From the NCBI RefSeq assembly GCF_050320075.1, contig NZ_CP190018.1: a DNA stretch of 64,000 bases. One strand, given 5' to 3'. This document shows positions 3,783-15,050 of the stretch, in pieces; positions within the stretch are counted from its first letter, which is position 1, and each line of letters starts with the position of its first letter. This DNA is from Escherichia coli. GTDB taxonomy: Bacteria; Pseudomonadota; Gammaproteobacteria; Enterobacterales; Enterobacteriaceae. The notes below the pieces were generated by a model that was not told where the DNA came from, ran no database searches, and was given only the letters and a program-made list of their open reading frames with translations. Both the position numbers and the translations under genes were made by a program.

Positions 3783-4101
3783 AGTAGTCTCCTGAGGTTT
3801 TATTAGAATCATTATGTTTGAGCGTAGCGTTGGTAACGCTACCAGGCGCGTGAATGTTACCCCATTTTATGTATGGACATGTAGCGAAAACTACAACCTT
3901 GTCGTTCGCTTTGGCATCACTTTCATTATAAAGACGGAATTTTGCATCAGCTTCTCATCAAGAAAAACAACTAAAAAATCAATCACAATACTTGTGCATT
4001 TCTTTAAACAGTTTTTAAAAACTGACTCCGGGTATGGAGCTATGGGTATTTTCTCTACCCAATGCTTTTAACAGCAATTAATTTCATAGGATGAAAGCTC
4101 A

Positions 4102-6693
4102 ATGCATCAATCTGGTTCTGTTTCTCTTTGTCGTTCCGCAATATCTGTTCTGGTGGCTACAGCGTTATATTCACCCATAGCATTGGCATCAACAGTTGAG
4201 TATGGTGAGACAGTTGATGGTGTTGTCCTGGAAAAAGATATCCAGCTGGTTTATGGGACCGCCAATAATACGAAAATCAATCCTGGCGGAGAACAGCATA
4301 TTAAAGAATTTGGTATAAGTAGTAATACTGAAATTAACGGCGGGTATCAGTACATTGAAATGAATGGCACCGCAGAATACTCAATATTAAATGATGGTTA
4401 TCAAATTGTTCAAATGGGTGGTGCGGCAAACCAGACTACCCTCAATAATGGTGTGTTACAGGTTTATGGCGCAGCGAATGAACCTACGATTAAAGGCGGG
4501 CGCTTAATTATTGAAAAAGATGGGATTACCGTCTTTGCCGCTATCGAAAAGGGAGGATTACTGGAGGTTAAAGAGGGGGGATTAGCATTTGCGGTAGATC
4601 AGAAAGCCGGCGGTGCGATTAAAACAACCACCCGGGCCATGGAGGTATTCGGAACAAACCGTCTCGGTCAGTTCGATATCAAGGATGGTATTGCTAATAA
4701 TATGCTGTTGGAAAACGGCGGAAGTTTGCGAGTTGAAGAAAATGACTTCGCTTATAATACCACTGTGGATAGTGGCGGCTTACTGGAGGTTATGGATGGC
4801 GGGACTGCAACTGGCGTTGATAAAAAAGCAGGCGGAAAATTAATTGTCTCAACGAATGCGCTGGAAGTGAGTGGTACAAACAGTAAAGGCCAATTTAGTA
4901 TAAAAGATGGTGTGTCAAAAAATTATGAACTGGATGATGGTTCCGGGCTCATTGTTATGGAGGACACGCAGGCCATTGATACTATCCTTGATGAGCATGC
5001 CACTATGCAATCGCTGGGAAAGGATACTGGTACGAGAGTGCAGGCAAATGCGGTATATGATCTCGGTCGATCAGATCAGAATGGAAGTATCACGTATTCC
5101 TCAAAAGCCATCTCTGAAAATATGGTTATCAACAATGGCCGCGCTAACGTCTGGGCTGGCACAATGGTTAACGTTTCAGTCAGAGGGAATGATGGCATTC
5201 TTGAGGTCATGAAGCCGCAAATAAATTATGCGCCCGCAATGTTGGTGGGTAAGGTAGTGGTTTCTGATAGCGCTTCTTTTAGAACGCATGGTGCCGTGGA
5301 TACCAGCAAAGCGGATGTTTCGCTCGAAAATAGCGCATGGACCATCATTGCCGATATCACTACGACGAACCAAAACACTCGCCTCAACTTAGCCAACCTT
5401 GCGATGTCTGGCGCAAATGTGATTATGATGGCTGAGCCAGTGACTCGTTCATCTGTGACGGCAAGTGCGGAAAATTTCATTACGTTGACCACCAATACCC
5501 TGTCGGGAAATGGCAATTTTTATATGCGTACCGATATGGCTAATCATCAGAGCGATCAGCTCAACGTCACCGGTCAGGCAACAGGTGATTTCAAAATATT
5601 CGTGACGGACACCGGTGCCAGCCCGGCAGCAGGAGATAGCCTTACACTGGTAACAACGGGCGGCGGTGATGCTGCATTTACGTTGGGCAATGCCGGAGGC
5701 GTTGTTGATATCGGTACGTATGAATATACCTTGCTGGATAATGGCAACCATAGCTGGAGCCTCGCAGAGAATCGCGCGCAAATTACCCCTTCAACCACTG
5801 ATGTGCTGAACATGGCAGCAGCACAACCGCTGGTATTTGATGCAGAACTGGACACCGTGCGTGAGCGTCTTGGTAGCGTAAAAGGCGTTAGTTACGATAC
5901 GGCGATGTGGAGTTCGGCAATTAACACCCGCAACAACGTGACCACTGATGCGGGAGCTGGCTTTGAGCAAACATTGACGGGCCTGACGCTCGGTATCGAT
6001 AGCCGTTTCTCCCGTGAAGAAAGCAGCACAATTCGCGGCTTGTTCTTTGGTTACTCTCATTCTGATATTGGTTTTGATCGCGGCGGCAAAGGTAATATCG
6101 ATAGCTACACCCTGGGGGCTTATGCCGGTTGGGAGCATCAGAACGGTGCCTATGTTGATGGAGTGGTGAAAGTTGACCGTTTTGCCAACACCATCCATGG
6201 CAAGATGAGTAATGGAGCAACAGCGTTTGGCGATTACAATAGTAACGGCGCGGGTGCTCATGTCGAGAGCGGGTTCCGTTGGGTTGACGGATTGTGGAGT
6301 GTTAGACCCTATCTGGCCTTTACCGGCTTTACCACAGATGGTCAGGACTACACGTTATCAAATGGCATGCGCGCGGATGTGGGAAATACCCGGATATTAC
6401 GCGCTGAAGCGGGAACGGCGGTAAGCTATCACATGGACCTGCAAAACGGTACGACGTTGGAACCCTGGCTGAAAGCCGCCGTGCGTCAGGAATACGCCGA
6501 TTCTAACCAGGTGAAAGTTAATGACGATGGCAAATTTAATAATGATGTGGCTGGAACCCGTGGCGTTTATCAGGCTGGGATAAGGTCATCGTTTACCCCG
6601 ACGTTAAGCGGTCATTTGTCAGTCAGTTATGGCAATGGCGCAGGGGTAGAATCGCCGTGGAATATTCAGGCGGGTGTGGTCTGGACGTTCTGA
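4102..6693 (+). CDS. yejO: Autotransporter (type Va) outer membrane protein, intact 863 aa
   Basis: N-terminal signal peptide, long Gly/Thr/Asn-rich repetitive passenger, C-terminal beta-barrel ending in WTF; SD-like AGGATGA upstream of the ATG. Confidence 0.75.
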   Translation: MHQSGSVSLCRSAISVLVATALYSPIALASTVEYGETVDGVVLEKDIQLVYGTANNTKINPGGEQHIKEFGISSNTEINGGYQYIEMNGTAEYSILNDGYQIVQMGGAANQTTLNNGVLQVYGAANEPTIKGGRLIIEKDGITVFAAIEKGGLLEVKEGGLAFAVDQKAGGAIKTTTRAMEVFGTNRLGQFDIKDGIANNMLLENGGSLRVEENDFAYNTTVDSGGLLEVMDGGTATGVDKKAGGKLIVSTNALEVSGTNSKGQFSIKDGVSKNYELDDGSGLIVMEDTQAIDTILDEHATMQSLGKDTGTRVQANAVYDLGRSDQNGSITYSSKAISENMVINNGRANVWAGTMVNVSVRGNDGILEVMKPQINYAPAMLVGKVVVSDSASFRTHGAVDTSKADVSLENSAWTIIADITTTNQNTRLNLANLAMSGANVIMMAEPVTRSSVTASAENFITLTTNTLSGNGNFYMRTDMANHQSDQLNVTGQATGDFKIFVTDTGASPAAGDSLTLVTTGGGDAAFTLGNAGGVVDIGTYEYTLLDNGNHSWSLAENRAQITPSTTDVLNMAAAQPLVFDAELDTVRERLGSVKGVSYDTAMWSSAINTRNNVTTDAGAGFEQTLTGLTLGIDSRFSREESSTIRGLFFGYSHSDIGFDRGGKGNIDSYTLGAYAGWEHQNGAYVDGVVKVDRFANTIHGKMSNGATAFGDYNSNGAGAHVESGFRWVDGLWSVRPYLAFTGFTTDGQDYTLSNGMRADVGNTRILRAEAGTAVSYHMDLQNGTTLEPWLKAAVRQEYADSNQVKVNDDGKFNNDVAGTRGVYQAGIRSSFTPTLSGHLSVSYGNGAGVESPWNIQAGVVWTF

Positions 6694-6755
6694 TAACAGA
6701 AAATAAACAGGCCGTGATGTGTCGCGGTCTGTTTATCGAATTAAATGCAGATATA

Positions 6756-6788
6756 AAAAAACCAACCGTAAAGGTTGGTTTTTTTTGG
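6756..6788. terminator. Bidirectional intrinsic terminator (ACCAACC-GTAAA-GGTTGGT flanked by A-run and T-run)
   Basis: Perfect 7-bp stem with A7 upstream and T8 downstream; directly followed by a degenerate copy of the tRNA-Pro 3' end, so it likely marks the island's right junction. Confidence 0.6.
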
Positions 6789-7162
6789 GATTTTTGGCAC
6801 GAGAGTAGTTTAATTGAGCCTGTAACTGTATGATTTTAAAGATGTAGATTAATTGAGTTTTGAAATCGTATATCCAAACGTATAACTAAAATGATTTGCT
6901 GCAAAAATGTACAGCTTTAACCGTTATCATTTTCCGGCTATTCGCTATGAAGCTGGCTGGTGGATAAGCACGGATAACCTGACATCTACAGCCGCCTTAA
7001 AAGCTGAACCCGACAAGCATATCGGCATCATGCCCACCAGCGTGACGCATTTTTTTAATTGCGCGGGCGTAAAAATTTGACGGGGCGGACAGTTCCATAA
7101 GTAATGGATTGCAGGAATTTCGCCCCCCCTCCTGAATGCAATTTTTCGTATATATATACAAA

Positions 7163-7290
7163 ACCACCCGTCCCACCTGTCCCGCCTGTCCCACTGGCAC
7201 CTAACAAATTGATTTTGTTAGAAATAAATTAGGTAAGGTAGGACAAGTCCAGGCTGTTTTGGGACAAGTTGGGGGGGAGGTGGGACAAGT
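7163..7290. repeat. Iteron block 1: three GTCCC units at ~10-bp spacing, 8-bp palindrome CTAACAAA-N5-TTTGTTAG, three GGGACAAGT units at ~21-bp spacing
   Basis: Read directly: TCCCACCTGTCCCGCCTGTCCCA at 7169-7194; palindrome at 7201-7221; G(G)GACAAGT at 7241, 7261, 7282. Confidence 0.6.
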
Positions 7291-7824
7291 CGAGCGAGTG
7301 AATCAAGCCGTGTTAGCGCGGTAAAGCGACAGTGCCGCCGCAATTTTGCGTTGTCGGGAGGCCACCGTAACAGCCACCATACGCGCACAATCTTCGGTGG
7401 TAACGCAATCCAGACGTGCGCAACATCCCCAGATAGGAAATCATTACCTAGCACAGCTAATTGCGCCAGAATCGATTACAGCGCGTTTCTGTGGCATTCA
7501 AGAACGGCTATCACTAGTGTATTGATATGTAATCCGCATATGAGTTTAAGCAACAAAATGATCCCCTTTCGAAAAAGGCACTAACCGTTTTTTCCGAAAT
7601 GATCCGTTGGTGATTTTGTAACTTATTGTTTTGTAGATGTAATTTTAAACTTGATAGGGTTATAAATAGGGGGCGTTTTTGTCAAGAATTGCAAATAATG
7701 CTCGTTTATTGTTCTTTGTTTGTTTGTTTTCTGTTCGTTGATGGGGGATCATTTTGCACTTTTTGGGGGATCATTTCGGAGGGGGGGGGCTGGCAACACG
7801 CCAGCACCCTCGATGCGTTTGTTT

Positions 7825-8034
7825 TTAGCAGTACTCCCAGTCTGTGGCTAGTAGGCTCTCAGGAGATAGCGTAACGCTATCCTCTGTGACGGGATTCAAC
7901 GCAATCAAATCGTTTCCGCGCCGTTCGAGAAAGACGATGTACGGAAGATGCCAGGCACTGCGGCGAGCTGGCACGCGTCGGCCTGGCTGCAACTTGTCGA
8001 GAATATCCACCAGCGAAACGTTCATGTGATTCAA
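7825..8034 (-). CDS. Hypothetical small protein (69 aa with TTG start; 66 aa from internal ATG)
   Basis: ORF with AGGAG about 5 nt upstream of the TTG; last gene of the ssb-finO-perC cluster; no recognisable family. Confidence 0.35.
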   Translation of the reverse strand: MNHMNVSLVDILDKLQPGRRVPARRSAWHLPYIVFLERRGNDLIALNPVTEDSVTLSPESLLATDWEYC

Positions 8035-8090
8035 AAAACTCCTGAAACGCTCTACAACTCAATAACACAAAAAATAATGCAGAACTGCCA

Positions 8091-8375
8091 CTATAAAACC
8101 TTGTCTGTCTGGTAGTTCCGCCAGACAGATTTTGCGATTTCTATCCCCATATCCGCCTGTGTGCGGTGTGCTGCCTCTCTCAAGCTCCCGAAATTATCCA
8201 GCATGACGGGCGAACGTGCTGCCTTGTGGATACATTTCGCGCGACGCTTTACTGCCTGTTCGCGCTCCTTATCGGTGTTCACCTGTTGCATGACCTCAGC
8301 CCATCGGGCCGCCGCTCTCCGGTACAGGCCTTTAGCCTCCAGATCTTCCGCTTTGCTGTCGTGAATCATACTCAT
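8091..8375 (-). CDS. PerC-family transcriptional activator-like protein (94 aa)
   Basis: Motif EDLEAKGLYRRAAARWAEV resembles the PerC family signature; start ATG overlaps stop of upstream gene (ATGA coupling). Confidence 0.5.
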   Translation of the reverse strand: MSMIHDSKAEDLEAKGLYRRAAARWAEVMQQVNTDKEREQAVKRRAKCIHKAARSPVMLDNFGSLREAAHRTQADMGIEIAKSVWRNYQTDKVL

Positions 8376-8908
8376 ACGCCAGCTTGCTCCTTGTTCGACT
8401 TACGTTTGCGCTTCTCTTTCAGTGCCATCAGTCGTGCTTCCGCGTCCTGCTGTTCCTGTTGTGTCACCTCGCCGCATGGCTGGCTATTCAGATCGTAACG
8501 CACGCCACCAGCCATTAAGGCACGGTAATAACGCGGAGAATGAGCATAAGATGCTAGCGCCGCACGTAATGCCCCTGACCCAAAAGCCAGCGCCCTGACG
8601 GCAATATCCTGTATCAGGTCTTCAAATATTCCTACCTTAAGCGGCTTCGGTGATTCCAGGCTGAATAATTCAGGCCATAGTTCAATAAGACGGTTAACGC
8701 GCCTGCGGTTTTTGCCCTGGCGTTTGGTCATATGCCGCCACGGTGTCGCCCCTGTGGGCTTCTGTTTGCGGCTCTGCTGTGCGTTCTGATTGCCGGGTAT
8801 CACTTTATGCGCTGATGTGGTTTTATCCTGCTGCTGTGTCGTCTGTGTCTTTTTCTGTGGTATGCCGTAAATGCCTTTCGGTTTTCTGCTAATAGTCAGT
8901 GTAGTCAT
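8372..8908 (-). CDS. ProQ/FinO-domain RNA-binding protein (178 aa) with basic low-complexity N-terminal extension
   Basis: C-terminal two thirds align by eye with E. coli ProQ N-terminal domain (PLKVGIFEDL..., LRAAL.SY..S.RY...GG.RYDL...PCGE). Confidence 0.6.
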   Translation of the reverse strand: MTTLTISRKPKGIYGIPQKKTQTTQQQDKTTSAHKVIPGNQNAQQSRKQKPTGATPWRHMTKRQGKNRRRVNRLIELWPELFSLESPKPLKVGIFEDLIQDIAVRALAFGSGALRAALASYAHSPRYYRALMAGGVRYDLNSQPCGEVTQQEQQDAEARLMALKEKRKRKSNKEQAGV

Positions 8909-9605: not shown

Positions 9606-11741
9606 TTAACCACCTTCATCATCATGATCCTGTGCAAGTAAAAGGCCGTACACCCTTAGTCGTGCCCCCTTCATGTGCTTAAGACGTGGTGTTCTGATTT
9701 GCCATCCTTCCCCGCTGGCTGGCTTTTTCAGCATTCCGGCTTCGTGAAGGGCTCTTGCTACGGCATCCTTGTTAAATCCCTTCGCCACATGCGATTTAAA
9801 TGGCTCCGGCAGGACGTAAAACAAAACAGGCTCACCGTAACGCCCCTCGCTTTCCCTGTAGCCGTACAGTTCTGAAATCGGCAGGCTTGCAGGGTCATAA
9901 TTGACAGGCGCAAACCTGCTCATGCCGTAGGCAGTAAGAAATGCCTCTGCCTGTTCAATAATCTGCCTGTGTTCCTTGTTACCCGTGCCGAACTCCTTCA
10001 CCCAGGCATTAAAGTTATGCTGAATGGCATCACAGCACGTCTGAACATTCCAGCCCGTAACATGACCGGACAGCACAAGCGCGGCCTCCAGTATGGCGAA
10101 TCGTTCCCCTACGCGATGAACCTGTTCGCCGTAGCTCTCCGGTATTAGGTTGCGCCACCGTTCACGGCACGCCCTTACCGTGTCCTTAGCCTCCTGCTGG
10201 TGGGCTGCCAGCCATTTAACCCATTCACGACCCGCCGCCCCGTGGTTTTCTGTCCAGGCGGCTTTTAACGCGTCTGCGTGCGCCTTTCCTGTGCTGTATT
10301 CGTGAAACTGCGTAGACTTCTCCATCGGCACGTTAAGCAACCTGACAAGCTGCCCCGCCTTGACTTTTATCCCCTCACTTTTGAGGAATGTTTCAACATC
10401 CATTTCTCCGGTACTGATCGCCACCGTGCGCCAGTGTTTTATCTCCCGGTTGCCGCCGTCCTTCGCCCCCTGTAATTTCCCGGAACCGTTAAACAGCGTA
10501 TAGGCTGACGTGGACACCTCCCGCGCGTTTCCGGCCTGGCCTATTTCATCCAGGGGTAACAGCCCGTCGTTGTGCGCCTCTGCCTCGTTAGCGATACCTA
10601 ACGCTGTGCCGTACCAGGTCAGCCGTTGCGCGTCCGGCTCTCCCCATAAACTTGATGCGATGTTCTGTGTGGTGGTTTTCCCTGCCGATGATTGTTCGAA
10701 AAGATGTACCCCGAAGCCGTCAGCGCCCACCAGCCCGATTAATGGTGCTGATAACGATACCGCCACACCCAGCATCATGGACGGATTACCACCAGCCAGT
10801 CGCGCCACTGTATCGCGCCAGCCCTCTGTCGTTCCTGCTACGGAATAACCATTAACGGCAGCCGTTTTTCCGGTAAACAGGATCGGTTTTTCAGACTCAC
10901 CAATGACTGAACCGTCCGGCATGATGTACGCGCCAAAATGCCACCCCGTTGTTGTGCTTAACTGCCATTCCTCATGGTTTCCGTTTAACTGCATCCAGTC
11001 AGCCAGGATAGCCCTGTATTTGCCGTTGGTTGTCACATTGAGTCCGTGGTCTTTCAGCAGCCGCCAGCCGTCACGGTCGCCAATGCCACCGCACGGGATC
11101 GCCATTGTGATGACTTCATGATTTGCTAATTTTTTCCAGCGCATCACGCGGTAATGCTCTTTACCGATCGTTCCCGTTCCCAGTAGTTCAAGCGGGGAAC
11201 ATAACCACGCCTCAGGCCGGATAATTTCGCCTGACTGTTTGTCAACTTTGGGCGTTACCCAGAAAACACCATCGGCGCGACTTTCAACGCGGGGTTTTAA
11301 TTCATCATCGCCCTGGCTTTCTGTGATTTTTTTCTTTAAGGGCAACACCAGACTTTCCCCGCGCTCGTATTCGTCTTTGAGGCGAGGCAACTGGTCGGAT
11401 AAATCCGCCGGGCTGGTGTCAGTTATCCCCGCATATTCGTATACGGTCTTCACGCCAGCCACAGCCAGCAATGTGACGATCTGTGTAAGGCTACGTTCAG
11501 TGATGTGCCCTGCGCGGTAAACACGCACACACTGACGGCTATCATCAATAATCTGATAACCGGTAATATCTTTCAGGTGTTCATCTGACAGAACGACAGG
11601 CGGCACATTGTCGGCGGCAATATGCTTACCTGCCCATTCCTGCCACTCTTTCGCATGGCTCCACGCATCACTACCCGCAAAAATGATAACCTCCGTCATT
11701 TTGTCGGCTGGCTGGTGCTTTAAGTTCGGTGCGCGTTTCAT
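9606..11741 (-). CDS. Replicative primase-helicase (TOPRIM-like N-terminus plus P-loop NTPase, 711 aa)
   Basis: Walker A-like SSAGKTT, large size, position downstream of int/alpA as in P4 alpha-type and PICI pri-rep genes; start overlaps upstream small ORF. Confidence 0.75.
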   Translation of the reverse strand: MKRAPNLKHQPADKMTEVIIFAGSDAWSHAKEWQEWAGKHIAADNVPPVVLSDEHLKDITGYQIIDDSRQCVRVYRAGHITERSLTQIVTLLAVAGVKTVYEYAGITDTSPADLSDQLPRLKDEYERGESLVLPLKKKITESQGDDELKPRVESRADGVFWVTPKVDKQSGEIIRPEAWLCSPLELLGTGTIGKEHYRVMRWKKLANHEVITMAIPCGGIGDRDGWRLLKDHGLNVTTNGKYRAILADWMQLNGNHEEWQLSTTTGWHFGAYIMPDGSVIGESEKPILFTGKTAAVNGYSVAGTTEGWRDTVARLAGGNPSMMLGVAVSLSAPLIGLVGADGFGVHLFEQSSAGKTTTQNIASSLWGEPDAQRLTWYGTALGIANEAEAHNDGLLPLDEIGQAGNAREVSTSAYTLFNGSGKLQGAKDGGNREIKHWRTVAISTGEMDVETFLKSEGIKVKAGQLVRLLNVPMEKSTQFHEYSTGKAHADALKAAWTENHGAAGREWVKWLAAHQQEAKDTVRACRERWRNLIPESYGEQVHRVGERFAILEAALVLSGHVTGWNVQTCCDAIQHNFNAWVKEFGTGNKEHRQIIEQAEAFLTAYGMSRFAPVNYDPASLPISELYGYRESEGRYGEPVLFYVLPEPFKSHVAKGFNKDAVARALHEAGMLKKPASGEGWQIRTPRLKHMKGARLRVYGLLLAQDHDDEGG

Positions 11742-12025
11742 TTCTTGCCCCCAGTAACCAGCATTTCGCGGATTTTGCGGATATATCTTGCTGCACGGTT
11801 CTGATTTACGGTTTCACGATGATCCACCAGCGTAAAATCACGCTGGAACTGATAAACAGGCATCACGCAGTCATATTCGTATCCTTCACGGCGGTAGGTC
11901 ATGCGTCGTTCACTCACGCCCTTAATCATTACCGTGCTGCCGTATTTATCGCGGTAAATATCGCCGTGCATGAATTCAGGACGAGTTTTACCGCTGGCAG
12001 TAAAGCCAGAATTTTTTGCTTTCAT
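11738..12025 (-). CDS. Hypothetical protein (95 aa), translationally coupled to primase-helicase
   Basis: ORF stop overlaps primase start codon; coding-like composition; no family recognised. Confidence 0.45.
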   Translation of the reverse strand: MKAKNSGFTASGKTRPEFMHGDIYRDKYGSTVMIKGVSERRMTYRREGYEYDCVMPVYQFQRDFTLVDHRETVNQNRAARYIRKIREMLVTGGKK

Positions 12026-12064
12026 TTATCGAATTACGTTTTTGTTAAAGCTGTATTAATGAGA

Positions 12065-12250
12065 TTAATGAACTGTCGCCACTTCAATTACGGCACGGAT
12101 CATCACCTGCGTGAACCCACAGCCGATTAACTCTTCTTTCAATATTGCGATAGCTGCATTAACGCTGGTGGCGTTCACGTTTTGCTGATTATCAATAACG
12201 TGGCCTTGATGATTTACAGCGCGTGCGGTTATCTGAAATCGCTTAAGCAT
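12065..12250 (-). CDS. Hypothetical small protein (61 aa)
   Basis: ORF preceded by GGGGTGAGG SD-like sequence; start overlaps stop of upstream small ORF. Confidence 0.4.
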   Translation of the reverse strand: MLKRFQITARAVNHQGHVIDNQQNVNATSVNAAIAILKEELIGCGFTQVMIRAVIEVATVH

Positions 12251-12431
12251 GCCTCACCCCCTGACGAATACGGGCAGCGAATACAGCAACACAGCCGGAC
12301 GGGCAACAGTTACGCGCTTCTCGTTCGGTTGATGCCTCGACGTGAACAATACGGGAATCAGTCGGATTAAAGATGACAAAGCGCCAGATAAATGTGTTTT
12401 GAGAATGTTCGAGGGTAGGGGTAGTAGCCAT
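12243..12431 (-). CDS. Small protein (62 aa), possibly Icd-like (host cell division inhibitor-like) as annotated in P4-like elements
   Basis: Strong SD AGGAGG 7 nt upstream of ATG; FIWRF and FAAR motifs recalled from Icd-like annotations (memory-based, uncertain). Confidence 0.45.
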   Translation of the reverse strand: MATTPTLEHSQNTFIWRFVIFNPTDSRIVHVEASTEREARNCCPSGCVAVFAARIRQGVRHA

Positions 12432-12640
12432 TTGGCAGCCTCCTGTAACGTTGGGATATACCCACCGCCGGAGGTGGTAAGCTCGATGGCGGTGGACTGT
12501 ACAGGGTTACCACAACTGGTGTTACAGGAAACCAGCCTGACCGAAGTCAGCCCCATACAGCCCACCATTGATAAGGCGTGCGCGTGCGCCGATACAAAAA
12601 AAGACGCCTGGCGCGTCTGTATCGCCTGTAACTCCAGCGG
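12432..12640 (-). ncRNA. Candidate structured regulatory RNA / leader (P4 immunity-like seqA-seqB-seqC arrangement)
   Basis: On the minus strand: GTTACAGG (12632-12625), intrinsic terminator, UUCG-tetraloop hairpin (12550-12537), complementary CCTGTAAC (12528-12521), then GTTACAGGAGG (12449-12439) overlapping the SD of the first ORF. Confidence 0.3.
12595..12618 (-). terminator. Intrinsic terminator inside the leader region (AGACGC-loop-GCGTCT followed by T7 on minus strand)
   Basis: 6-bp GC-rich stem, 5-nt loop, run of seven T on the transcribed strand. Confidence 0.5.
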
Positions 12641-13077
12641 GGTGGTAATCCCGACACCCGTTTTATGAGGTGCGCAGGGAGTATATCCCGTTTTCTTGCT
12701 CATGTGGTCGGATGTGTTGAAGGTGTGCCCACCACACAAATCACATTGCTCACCAGCCGGAAATATGGCATTGTTGGCGATGCATTCAAGTTTAATATAT
12801 GCCTTCTGGCGACCCTCTGCGGTCGCCTTTGTTTTATTCGTAAGCAACATATTTCTTTTGTCGTTTAAGCTATGCGATTGTACGTTTCCGTTTAAAACGG
12901 AAGTGCTATTAGTTCAATTAATTCGTTCGTACGGTTTGAACTGAATAATAACATCAGCCATAATTTTTTATGGTTGAACGAAAACCTGCCCCTGTTTGGG
13001 CATTTTTGCCAGTATTCATAATGTTCTCTCTTAATTGTTTTGTTGCTTGATAGTAATCAGGCCAGCGTTAATCACAC

Positions 13078-13269
13078 TTATGCTTCACGAGTTTCTCTCT
13101 CACGTTCTTTCAACCAGGCGAGTACCTCATCTTCATACCAGCCAATGCGACGCAGCCCGATACGGAATCCTTTGGGGAACCCGCCTTTGTTAACCATCTC
13201 CGTTAGGGTCGAATCAGATTTAATGCGTAGCAAGGCCTTTACCTCTGGTCGTAAAAGAATAGCCCTCAT
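13078..13269 (-). CDS. alpA: AlpA-family phage transcriptional regulator / excisionase-like (63 aa)
   Basis: Small HTH protein with LLR..EV......S.ST......G.FP....IG.R.IGW...EV..WL pattern; position between integrase and replication genes. Confidence 0.7.
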   Translation of the reverse strand: MRAILLRPEVKALLRIKSDSTLTEMVNKGGFPKGFRIGLRRIGWYEDEVLAWLKERERETREA

Positions 13270-13522: not shown

Positions 13523-14767
13523 TTATTTTATTCCGCGTAATCCTCTGTGCCCGCTGGCGATGGTTGTTCCGGTTGCGGCTGCTTCCACAAAATCACCCCA
13601 CCAGCACATTAACACTTTACGTTTTTCCAGGTAGTTGCTTCGGTTGTATGCCCGTCTAACTTCGTTTGTGTCCACGTGGGCTAGTGCGGCTTCGATCACG
13701 TCAGGTTCAAATCCTTCTTCATTCGCCGCCGTGCTGAATATTGCGCGTAGTCCGTGAGATACCAGCACACCAGCGTAACCCATTCGTCGTAATGCTGCGT
13801 TTGCTGTCTGGCTGCTCATTGATTGCACTGGATTTTTAAGACTTGGGAAAACATGCTCCCTTCGTGCGCTAATCGGCTTCATGGCTTCAAGCACTGCCAT
13901 CGCCTGAGCGCAAAGGGGGATCACATGATCACGGCGCATCTTCATGCGTCCGGCTGGTATCGTCCAGGTTGCCGCCTCAAGGTTGATTTCTTCCCACCGT
14001 GCGGCGGAGGCTTCGGCTGGGCGGGTTGCGGTTAACAACTGCCACTCAATCAGCAATCTGGTTTGCCGTTCTATGCTGGCGATCGATAAATCGTGCATTA
14101 GCTGCGGTAGTTGTTCCGGTCGGATGGTTGGCATGTGCTTTTTGGTGGGGGAAGGGAATGCCTTGCGAACGTTCGCGGCGGTGTTGATGTCAATCAGTCC
14201 ACTGTTGGCAGCAAAATCCATCACTTCATTGATGCGCTGTAAAACGCGTTTCAGTGTTTCCAGGTTGCCACGTGCCTTGATGGGCGTGAGTATCTCAACA
14301 AAGCGGCGAGCGGTGAGAGTATCTATCGGTGTGTTTCCGATATACGGGAATACATATTTCTCTAGCGAGCGCCAGATGTCCTTGATCGTATTGTGGGCGA
14401 GATTCTGGTTTTTTTTCATTTCGTACCACAATGCGGCCACATTTTCGAACGTGTTGCCCTGTCGTCGAGCCTCTGCTTCGAGTTTTTGCCGTTCGTATTC
14501 CTGCGGGTCGGTTCCTGCCGCAATTAACGTCCTGTACTCGCTACGGCGTTTTCTGGCATCAGCCAGGGAGACTTCATCAAGCGAGCCCAAACTAATGATT
14601 GTTCGTTTTTTGTTCGATGGTCGATAGTAGTTGAATCGCCATAGTTTCGAACCAGACGGCTTAATAACGAGAAAAAGCCCGCCGCCATCCTGTAAGGTGT
14701 ATTCTTTTTCCGCTGGTTTAGCTGCTTTGATCTGTGTGGTGGTGAGTGGGGTCGCCTTTCTTGCCAT
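13523..14767 (-). CDS. int: Tyrosine site-specific integrase, P4-type (414 aa)
   Basis: N-terminal arm-binding-like domain (LTTTQIKAAKP...GGGLFLVIKPSGSKLWRF), C-terminal catalytic region with HGLRA and terminal tyrosine region; adjacent to tRNA gene. Confidence 0.85.
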   Translation of the reverse strand: MARKATPLTTTQIKAAKPAEKEYTLQDGGGLFLVIKPSGSKLWRFNYYRPSNKKRTIISLGSLDEVSLADARKRRSEYRTLIAAGTDPQEYERQKLEAEARRQGNTFENVAALWYEMKKNQNLAHNTIKDIWRSLEKYVFPYIGNTPIDTLTARRFVEILTPIKARGNLETLKRVLQRINEVMDFAANSGLIDINTAANVRKAFPSPTKKHMPTIRPEQLPQLMHDLSIASIERQTRLLIEWQLLTATRPAEASAARWEEINLEAATWTIPAGRMKMRRDHVIPLCAQAMAVLEAMKPISARREHVFPSLKNPVQSMSSQTANAALRRMGYAGVLVSHGLRAIFSTAANEEGFEPDVIEAALAHVDTNEVRRAYNRSNYLEKRKVLMCWWGDFVEAAATGTTIASGHRGLRGIK

Positions 14768-14973: not shown

Positions 14974-15050
14974 TGGTCGGCACGAGAGGATTTGAACCTC
15001 CGACCCCCGACACCCCATGACGGTGCGCTACCAGGCTGCGCTACGTGCCG
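14974..15050 (-). tRNA. proL: tRNA-Pro (anticodon GGG), 77 nt with encoded CCA
   Basis: Reverse complement reads CGGCACGTAGCGCAGCCTGGTAGCGCACCGTCATGGGGTGTCGGGGGTCGGAGGTTCAAATCCTCTCGTGCCGACCA; cloverleaf with GGG in anticodon loop. Confidence 0.9.

Follow-up and report, generated by a model that had tools for sequence, protein, structure and literature searches.

A 64,000-nucleotide stretch of Escherichia coli DNA (NCBI RefSeq assembly GCF_050320075.1, contig NZ_CP190018.1), referred to here as the window, contains three small open reading frames (ORF1, ORF2, and ORF3) that its ORF listing places on the minus strand directly 5' of a gene for a 711-aa DUF927 helicase. This module probably operates through an RNA immunity switch of the P4/P1 type that gates translation of ORF1 and, by polarity, expression of ORF2, ORF3, and the helicase, within an island at proL that resembles the phage-inducible chromosomal islands (PICIs). 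The design is already known, being a P4/P1 immunity head on a PICI replication module, and the ORFs are already annotated in public genomes. The analysis places these anonymous small ORFs in that design, in which antisense-RNA immunity gates the early and replication operon of a satellite.

Gene order and the antisense RNA switch

The first translated gene of the operon, ORF1 (12431..12243, 62 aa), encodes an Icd/Kil-family small protein and is followed on the same minus strand by ORF2 (12250..12065, 61 aa), encoding an orphan small protein, ORF3 (12025..11738, 95 aa), encoding a basic protein of the DUF4222/RgdR family, and the DUF927 replicative helicase, taken as the Rep protein of the island (11741..9606, 711 aa). 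In an identical copy of the region, all four genes have the same coordinates in RefSeq, under the names 'host cell division inhibitor Icd-like protein' (ORF1), 'hypothetical protein' (ORF2), 'DUF4222 domain-containing protein' (ORF3), and 'DUF927 domain-containing protein' (helicase), and the exact protein sequences of the module are present on hundreds of public contigs. The initial annotation of the window had described three small ORFs of these lengths upstream of the 711-aa gene, each with a Shine-Dalgarno (SD)-like sequence and joined by overlapping stop/start junctions. The ORFs are present as described, and overlaps exist at two of the junctions, between ORF1 and ORF2 (8 nt, ATGCTTAA) and between ORF3 and the helicase (4 nt, ATGA); the remaining junction, from ORF2 to ORF3, is instead a gap of 39 AT-rich nucleotides. 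Similarly, the SD sequence of ORF1 is strong (AGGAGG, 7 nt before the ATG) and G-rich stretches lie upstream of both the ORF2 and the helicase starts, but nothing SD-like precedes ORF3.

Judged from their homologues, the three ORFs are real conserved coding genes rather than chance frames, because ORF1 and ORF3 score against family hidden Markov models (HMMs), the homologues of ORF2 are free of indels, and the nonsynonymous rate (pN) falls below the synonymous rate (pS) in all three. Against island homologues pN/pS is 0.3-0.5 for each ORF and lengths are kept; the frames are conserved in homologous islands, where the initial annotation had proposed that its prediction be tested. The ORFs do not, however, lead the operon as it had supposed, since an isrK-like RNA, a C4 antisense RNA and, further up, an AlpA-type gene precede them on the same strand. 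The C4/isrK RNA pair, which is aimed at the ribosome-binding site of ORF1, is the key regulatory feature that it had missed.

The isrK-like leader RNA (12673..12597, minus strand) matches Rfam family RF01394 over its full length with 61.6 bits (gathering threshold 50) and carries a terminator-like hairpin with a U run after it. The C4/CI-type antisense (immunity) RNA (12572..12485, minus strand) matches RF01695, also over its full length, with 78.7 bits (gathering threshold 45), and its 3' end lies 53 nt from the ORF1 ATG. The specificity loop in the second hairpin of the C4 RNA (UUUCCUGUAACA, 12531..12520) is complementary to sites in both the isrK-like leader and the ORF1 leader, all on the minus strand. 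Its segment CCUGUAAC pairs with GUUACAGG at the upstream seqA target in the isrK-like leader (12632..12625) and again at 12449..12442, within the seqC, or b', target GUUACAGGAGG (12449..12439), which overlaps the ORF1 SD sequence and is complementary to the loop over 11 nt. The 3' single-stranded segment of the C4 RNA, GUGGUAA, pairs with UUACCAC upstream in the isrK-like leader (12648..12642) and at the second, a', target in the ORF1 leader (12480..12474). Both RNAs thus score above their gathering thresholds and display the two-segment pairing with upstream and downstream target pairs, the downstream pair covering the ribosome-binding site, that defines a C4/CI switch. The isrK and C4 profiles of Rfam detect relatives of P4 seqA and CI RNA, and match several PICIs (Mageeney et al., PMC10111431).

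Compensatory changes are found at all three sites (the loop and its two targets) across the window, E. coli 042, P4, a P1-like plasmid, and five other islands. In E. coli 042, whose island occupies the same site and shows 95% identity across the aligned module (about 94.5% in a wider search), CCGUUAAC pairs with GUUAACGG at both targets, and in strain LH10-b-1 (locus L095), whose island at the same site is 93.6% identical, a third specificity pairs CCUUUUGCG with CGCAAAAGG. The corresponding pairs are CCUGUGAA with UUCACAGG in P4 and CCUUGGAC with GUCUAAGG in the P1-like plasmid, with other loop/target pairs in further islands, and the a' site also covaries in P4 and in islands L004, L005, L006, L012, and L013. 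Over 20 distinct combinations, the contiguous complementarity between a loop and its cognate SD site averages 10 nt with a minimum of 7, compared with a mean of 5.4 nt for non-cognate pairs, only 5.8% of which reach at least 8 nt. The covariation of loop and target across 20 variants argues strongly, on comparative grounds, that control is exerted at ORF1 translation, as it is in P1 c4-icd-ant and P4 cI-kil. In P1 and P4, the RNA is processed by RNase P and a block of the ribosome-binding site leads to Rho-dependent termination.

The three islands at the proL site (window, 042, and LH10-b-1) are 93-95% identical and have three antisense specificities (GUUACAGG, GUUAACGG, and CGCAAAAGG), with loop, seqA site, and SD site changed together in each. 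Immunity types therein appear to diversify fast, and at least three RNA specificities at one chromosomal site among close islands would be expected if they diversify against cross-repression. Some islands, among them L004 (3941-4028) and L011 (2752-2839), carry a tandem second C4 RNA with an Icd/Eta-like gene and its own specificity, so that the replication genes are preceded by a series of two immunity modules. The O157 OI-51 island (L007) has no C4 or isrK match and encodes a 247-aa hypothetical protein (4030-4773) upstream of its Icd-like gene, and many relatives in IMG/VR have long ORFs ending in an Icd domain; it appears that the module head also exists in a protein-only form.

DUF4222 and its coupling to replicases

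ORF3 matches the Pfam family PF13973 (DUF4222) with 85.9 bits (cutoff 27) and has an isoelectric point of 9.9. It shares 63% identity with the 99-aa DUF4222 protein of the O157 OI-51 island, with a conserved core corresponding to RgdR residues 20-68. The O157 protein carries the RgdR/ECs1581 residues D10, R20, Q27, K35, H45, and R61 listed by Flockhart et al. (PMC3378721), whereas residues 20-22 of ORF3 read HGD instead of the RGD tripeptide that gives the protein its name. The initial annotation had found no nameable family for either ORF2 or ORF3; this holds for ORF2, but ORF3 has a home in DUF4222/RgdR. AlphaFold2 models ORF3 as a small β-barrel with a C-terminal helix, its core having a predicted local distance difference test score (pLDDT) of ∼90, and a PDB sequence search with ORF3 returned no relatives. 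The name given to the ORF3 protein by JGI, 'ADP-dependent phosphofructokinase/glucokinase', looks like an annotation error. Homology of ORF3 to P4 orf151 was considered and is not supported, as there are only weak local matches (E 0.02-0.04) and orf151 has no DUF4222 match.

The position of DUF4222 genes is constant. An overlap of exactly 4 nt joins their stop to the start of the next gene in 8 annotated islands, as it does in 74 of the 79 loci from a neighbor survey of the best 80 loci in IMG/VR, where the following gene encodes a primase-family protein (42 loci), a RepA helicase (31), or a DUF927 protein (2), and where an Icd-like ORF lies upstream in 71 of the 72 loci with enough flank. The 8 annotated islands share the order Icd gene, −8 overlap, next gene, DUF4222, −4 overlap, replicase, the head of which is the same in P4 and P1. 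One island retains the junction around a shortened gene: in L012 (2968-3090), an internal deletion has cut the DUF4222 gene to 40 codons, although the two ends of the gene survive, as does its ATGA overlap with the primase gene. In the lambdoid phages mEp390 (L008 3480-3665) and vB_EcoS-733R5 (L010 3480-3659), an unannotated DUF4222 ORF of 59-61 aa overlaps the start of the replication initiator gene by 11-17 nt; the mEp390 ORF is in a different frame from the annotated gp41, and the 733R5 ORF lies opposite an annotated minus-strand ORF.

Given the fixed overlap with replicase genes of three kinds and the overlap with lambdoid initiator genes, the primary role of DUF4222 is probably tied to replicase expression or function. 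The family has been studied through RgdR of OI-51, which activates LEE1, in the enterocyte effacement locus (LEE), and type III secretion, represses motility, and shows weak, non-specific DNA binding, residue 20 of its RGD motif modulating its activity (PMC3378721). On this evidence ORF3 might be an accessory virulence or global regulator carried as cargo, with the replicase overlap reflecting compact packing, a view that we consider possible but on the unlikely side. Universal presence and a fixed position are not usual for cargo genes, yet DUF4222 occurs in all E. coli PICIs of Fillol-Salom et al. (PMC6092414), the exact 4-nt overlap joins it to three unrelated replicase types in 74 of 79 loci, and its 59-61-aa version overlaps the initiator gene of lambdoid phages. 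Homologues also occur in strains that lack LEE (PMC3378721), and the window protein has HGD in place of RGD. A bolder form of the replicase-linked reading can be offered only tentatively, namely that DUF4222/RgdR is a general partner of mobile-element replication initiators and not primarily a virulence regulator, being needed for replicase expression or loading, possibly via RNA polymerase or a host helicase, and that ORF2 belongs to a new C4-gated payload family with a role equivalent to that of P4 epsilon or P1 Ant.

The division inhibitor family and the orphan ORF2

The suggestion in the initial annotation that the first ORF is Icd-like is borne out by family score, alignment, and position. 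ORF1 scores 59.6 bits against NCBIfam NF033153 (cutoff 25), a profile that P4 Kil (the last 65 codons of eta) matches with 76.1 bits, and both proteins start with MATT. In an alignment with P4 Kil, the P1-type 73-aa Icd, and seven island homologues, ORF1 retains the invariant or nearly invariant residues F14, W16, R17, F18, A33, E36, A39, R40, A53, and R54, and the alignment spans the equivalent of P1 Icd residues 12-51, the minimal region for division inhibition and FtsZ binding (PMC11897509). Its pN/pS is 0.27-0.45 against island homologues. The gene sits directly 3' of the C4 RNA, the slot of icd in P1 and kil in P4, and its end overlaps the next gene by 8 nt, an overlap shared with P4 and six islands; a start 8 nt ahead of the Icd stop is found for the following gene in nearly all related elements. 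By family and position ORF1 is thus an Icd/Kil-family protein and the first translated gene of the operon, and it would be expected, by analogy with its relatives, to be toxic in the window island as well. Direct BLASTP of ORF1 against P4 Kil gave nothing, the kinship emerging only from the HMM that both match and from the multiple alignment; a search of phage records matched ORF1 to a single induced satellite-like record, and a PDB sequence search returned no relatives.

An eta-like ('ash family') reading frame (12850..12254, minus strand), annotated by RefSeq as a pseudogene and matching PF10554 on residues 56-143, crosses the isrK-like and C4 RNA genes and then all of ORF1 out of frame. In P4 and most islands examined, the frame of the Icd ORF instead continues open through the C4 RNA on its upstream side, as eta does, and both phrog_29966 and phrog_6928, which match the eta-like frame and then ORF1, are fusions of this eta type. 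The spacer between SD and ATG is 7 nt, not 8 nt, in the window, 042, L095, and L096, and therefore the eta-like frame is shifted by one base relative to ORF1. The shifted frame is open for 59 further codons and stops at a TGA (12256..12254) 3 nt before the ORF2 ATG. Since eta translation prevents termination in P4 (PMC10111431), the shifted frame could, by analogy, serve a cis anti-termination role. Selection keeping it open was considered and is not supported statistically, as it would be open by chance in an estimated ∼35% of cases over the 23 substitutions between the window and 042.

The same property of P4 allows ORF1 to be read mainly as a cis-acting leader, whose translation prevents termination and loads ribosomes on ORF2 while the peptide has no important activity in trans. 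Translation of eta/kil in P4 prevents termination and permits read-through downstream (PMC10111431). The −8 overlap is conserved whatever the next gene, and in E. coli 042 ORF1 is extended to 79 aa without disrupting ORF2. An experiment on the P4 kil region itself, by Forti et al. in 1999, is reported to have found translation preventing termination. We nonetheless think it unlikely that ORF1 is a leader and little else, as the invariant residues of the FtsZ-binding core are kept and pN/pS is ∼0.4, which would be unexpected if translation alone mattered. The extension in E. coli 042 (L014 3576-3815) arose through loss of the ORF1 stop, TAA to CAA, a change that is synonymous in ORF2; ORF2 is intact there and has no RefSeq annotation.

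The module might alternatively be primarily an anti-phage device of the abortive-infection or superinfection-exclusion type. A protein of the infecting phage would switch the operon on, growth arrest or death of the cell would follow from the Icd-like protein, and the remaining genes (ORF2, ORF3, and replicase) would be required for triggering or amplifying the response and not for spread of the satellite. Icd-plus-primase modules have been described as phage-triggered growth-arrest systems (Silas et al., bioRxiv 10.1101/2023.04.06.535777), and the island has no recognizable packaging or late genes. PADLOC, however, has no model matching any module protein, the Icd-like protein of ECOR61 has a long N-terminal extension unlike ORF1, and the architecture is that of the P4, P1, and PICI early operons, which serve the element's own cycle. 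An anti-phage function is thus improbable as the primary one, although it and a role in the satellite cycle are mutually compatible.

ORF2 has no match in Pfam, NCBIfam, or PADLOC and falls only into phrog_3672, of unknown function. Its relatives number 13 clusters in a word-indexed search of 5.8 billion proteins, all named ones coming from E. coli, and 9 representatives in a full HMMER profile search of 1.8 billion; tblastn against phage records found no match, and a PDB sequence search found no relatives, a match to 8fjf being ignored as a designed helical protein. Homologues in O157 and other islands share 48% identity and are exactly 61 codons long with no indels, pN is 0.34-0.44 against a saturated pS of ∼0.8, and AlphaFold2 predicts a β-β-α-β fold with a pLDDT of 94 from a 10-sequence alignment. 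An 8-nt overlap between the Icd stop and the start of the ORF2-like gene is seen in the window, in L007 and L012, and in 11 of the 13 IMG/VR loci; L011 is different in that its Icd and ORF2-like genes are set apart by a second Icd pseudogene and by a gap of 41 nt. With its 61 codons kept at 48% identity, its pN below pS, and the recurrent −8 overlap, ORF2 is by these comparative measures a real gene. That it is a chance or decaying frame of no function, as could be argued from its tiny family of almost only E. coli records, its lack of RefSeq annotation in 042, and its absence from 67 of 80 IMG/VR loci, is very improbable in view of the indel-free frame, its substitution pattern, the confident structural model, and the repeated overlap with Icd genes.

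The gene overlapping the kil/icd stop by 8 nt is, in P4, epsilon and, in P1, Ant, and ORF2 shares this position by analogy and not by family membership. The initial annotation had guessed at anti-repressors or helper derepressors among these small proteins, which for ORF2 agrees with its position only, there being no sequence similarity to epsilon. Homology to P4 epsilon was rejected: BLASTP gives no alignment and ORF2 has no match to the Derepression family, whereas epsilon scores 170 bits against PF25738. Unrelated small acidic proteins fill the same slot in other islands, as would be expected if ORF2 is a variable 'payload', and ORF2 is most likely, by the same analogy, a small protein that binds and modulates a protein of the helper phage or the host.

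The island, its proposed cycle, and its relatives

The island carries its genes in the order integrase, AlpA-type gene, module, DUF927 helicase, single-stranded DNA-binding protein (SSB), ProQ/FinO-family protein, and PerC-family regulator, followed by yejO. The tyrosine integrase (14767..13523, minus strand; RefSeq 'integrase domain-containing protein') lies next to tRNA-Pro (proL; 15050..14977, minus strand; Rfam tRNA 54.9 bits and RefSeq), the integration site beside yejM. The AlpA-type helix-turn-helix regulator (13269..13078, minus strand) matches PF05930 with 26.8 bits (cutoff 21), and the PerC-family regulator and ProQ/FinO-family RNA-binding protein (8091-8908, minus strand) lie downstream of SSB. 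AlpA activates the PICI cycle in E. coli, and Gram-negative PICIs have the layout int - alpA - replicase (PMC6092414). As co-oriented int, alpA, and replicase genes are found here at a tRNA site together with RgdR, the island is, by gene content, a small PICI-like, P4-related satellite at proL.

The initial annotation had called the 711-aa protein a primase-helicase, of which the helicase part stands. Pfam assigns DUF927 only (PF06048, 6.5e-46), and the nearest solved relatives are 8tch, a staphylococcal 'Pathogenicity island protein', and 5dgk, the SCCmec helicase Cch. No primase domain was detected in the protein; a PHROG 'DNA primase' match covers only the C-terminal two thirds of the profile, and helicase residues 1-89 match an unnamed PHROG.

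In the preferred reading, the C4-like RNA of the quiescent island would pair with the ORF1 leader and SD sequence, by analogy with P1 c4-icd-ant and P4 cI-kil, leaving ORF1 untranslated and ending transcription early, and this early termination would keep ORF2, ORF3, and the helicase silent. A helper phage would lead to activation of AlpA, whereupon upstream transcription probably overrides the block, possibly aided by translation of the eta-like frame. ORF1 would then be made as an Icd/Kil-type division inhibitor, with FtsZ its probable target, and would also serve through the 8-nt overlap as a ribosome-loading leader for ORF2, the presumed payload, placed where P4 has epsilon and P1 has Ant. 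The basic, Tudor/SH3-like ORF3 protein would be made in fixed coupling with the replicase, most likely serving its expression or function, and the island would replicate. The effects of RgdR on LEE and motility would be secondary to the island's own cycle.

Several points weigh against this model. No sigma-70 promoter just upstream of isrK scored above the scan threshold, and the sequence preceding ORF3 (...AACGTAATTCGATAAATG) has nothing SD-like, translational coupling to the upstream gene not being obvious at 39 nt from ORF2. The experiments on the RgdR family concern virulence-gene regulation, not replication (PMC3378721), and the function suggested for ORF2 draws on position and a generic small fold in a predicted model. 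Beyond the replicase the island holds only PerC, ProQ/FinO, and SSB genes, with no recognizable late or packaging genes, and it may be a decaying element. The ∼1.4 kb between yejO and the PerC gene (6693-8090) has no annotated gene and short ORFs only, and no direct repeat of the tRNA-Pro end of at least 12 nt was found to mark the far att site.

Among the closest known systems is the left operon of P4, the head of which reads seqA - cI (CI RNA) - eta/kil - epsilon - orf151 - orf106 - alpha. Both elements have an AlpA/Vis-type gene, an isrK-like seqA leader, a C4/CI RNA, a Kil/Icd ORF starting with MATT, an 8-nt overlap, and a replicase, and both follow a two-site antisense logic with element-specific sequences. 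They differ in that kil is the in-frame end of eta in P4, whereas the frames are shifted by one base in the window island; that epsilon, of the Pfam Derepression family, is replaced by the unrelated ORF2; that orf151 and orf106 of P4 are not DUF4222 by Pfam; and that the window island has a DUF927 helicase instead of the alpha primase-helicase and lacks sid, delta, and psu. The immI region of P1/P7 (c4 - icd - ant), compared here through the P1-like plasmid, similarly places a C4 RNA before an Icd gene with an SD target and an end that overlaps the next gene. P1 Icd binds FtsZ and blocks Z-ring formation (PMC11897509). Unlike its P1-type counterpart of 73 aa, to which it is ∼37% identical, ORF1 has 62 aa; a 61-aa orphan replaces the KilAC antirepressor Ant, and the operon of the window runs on into replication genes.

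The E. coli PICIs EcCICFT073, EcCI042, and O157 OI-51/CP-933C share with the window island the layout int - alpA - small ORFs - RgdR - replicase - SSB - PerC at a tRNA, and C4 and isrK matches in PICIs have already been noted (PMC10111431). The window copy differs from these named PICIs in having no recognizable late or packaging genes and HGD instead of RGD in ORF3, and from OI-51, which has no C4 match, in lacking the two extra small helical ORFs of that island. A likeness is also seen in isrK - orf45 - anrP of Salmonella Gifsy-1, where an isrK-family leader RNA stands before a short leader ORF and translation of this ORF governs an anti-repressor-like gene further downstream (PMC4825925). 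There, however, the short form of IsrK acts in trans to activate translation, and a C4 RNA has not been described (PMC4825925), whereas the isrK-like segment of the window carries upstream antisense targets and is followed by a C4 RNA.

Two questions are raised by these comparisons: whether RgdR, known only as a virulence-gene regulator of enterohemorrhagic E. coli, is really a replication-module protein of PICIs and lambdoid phages, and what role the 61-aa orphan plays in the anti-repressor slot of P4 and P1. The residual interest of the module lies in the fixed coupling of RgdR to replicases and in the target of ORF2, and neither question overturns current understanding. As a further observation, the ProQ/FinO-family RNA-binding protein, encoded beside an operon under antisense-RNA control, might be functionally linked to it.

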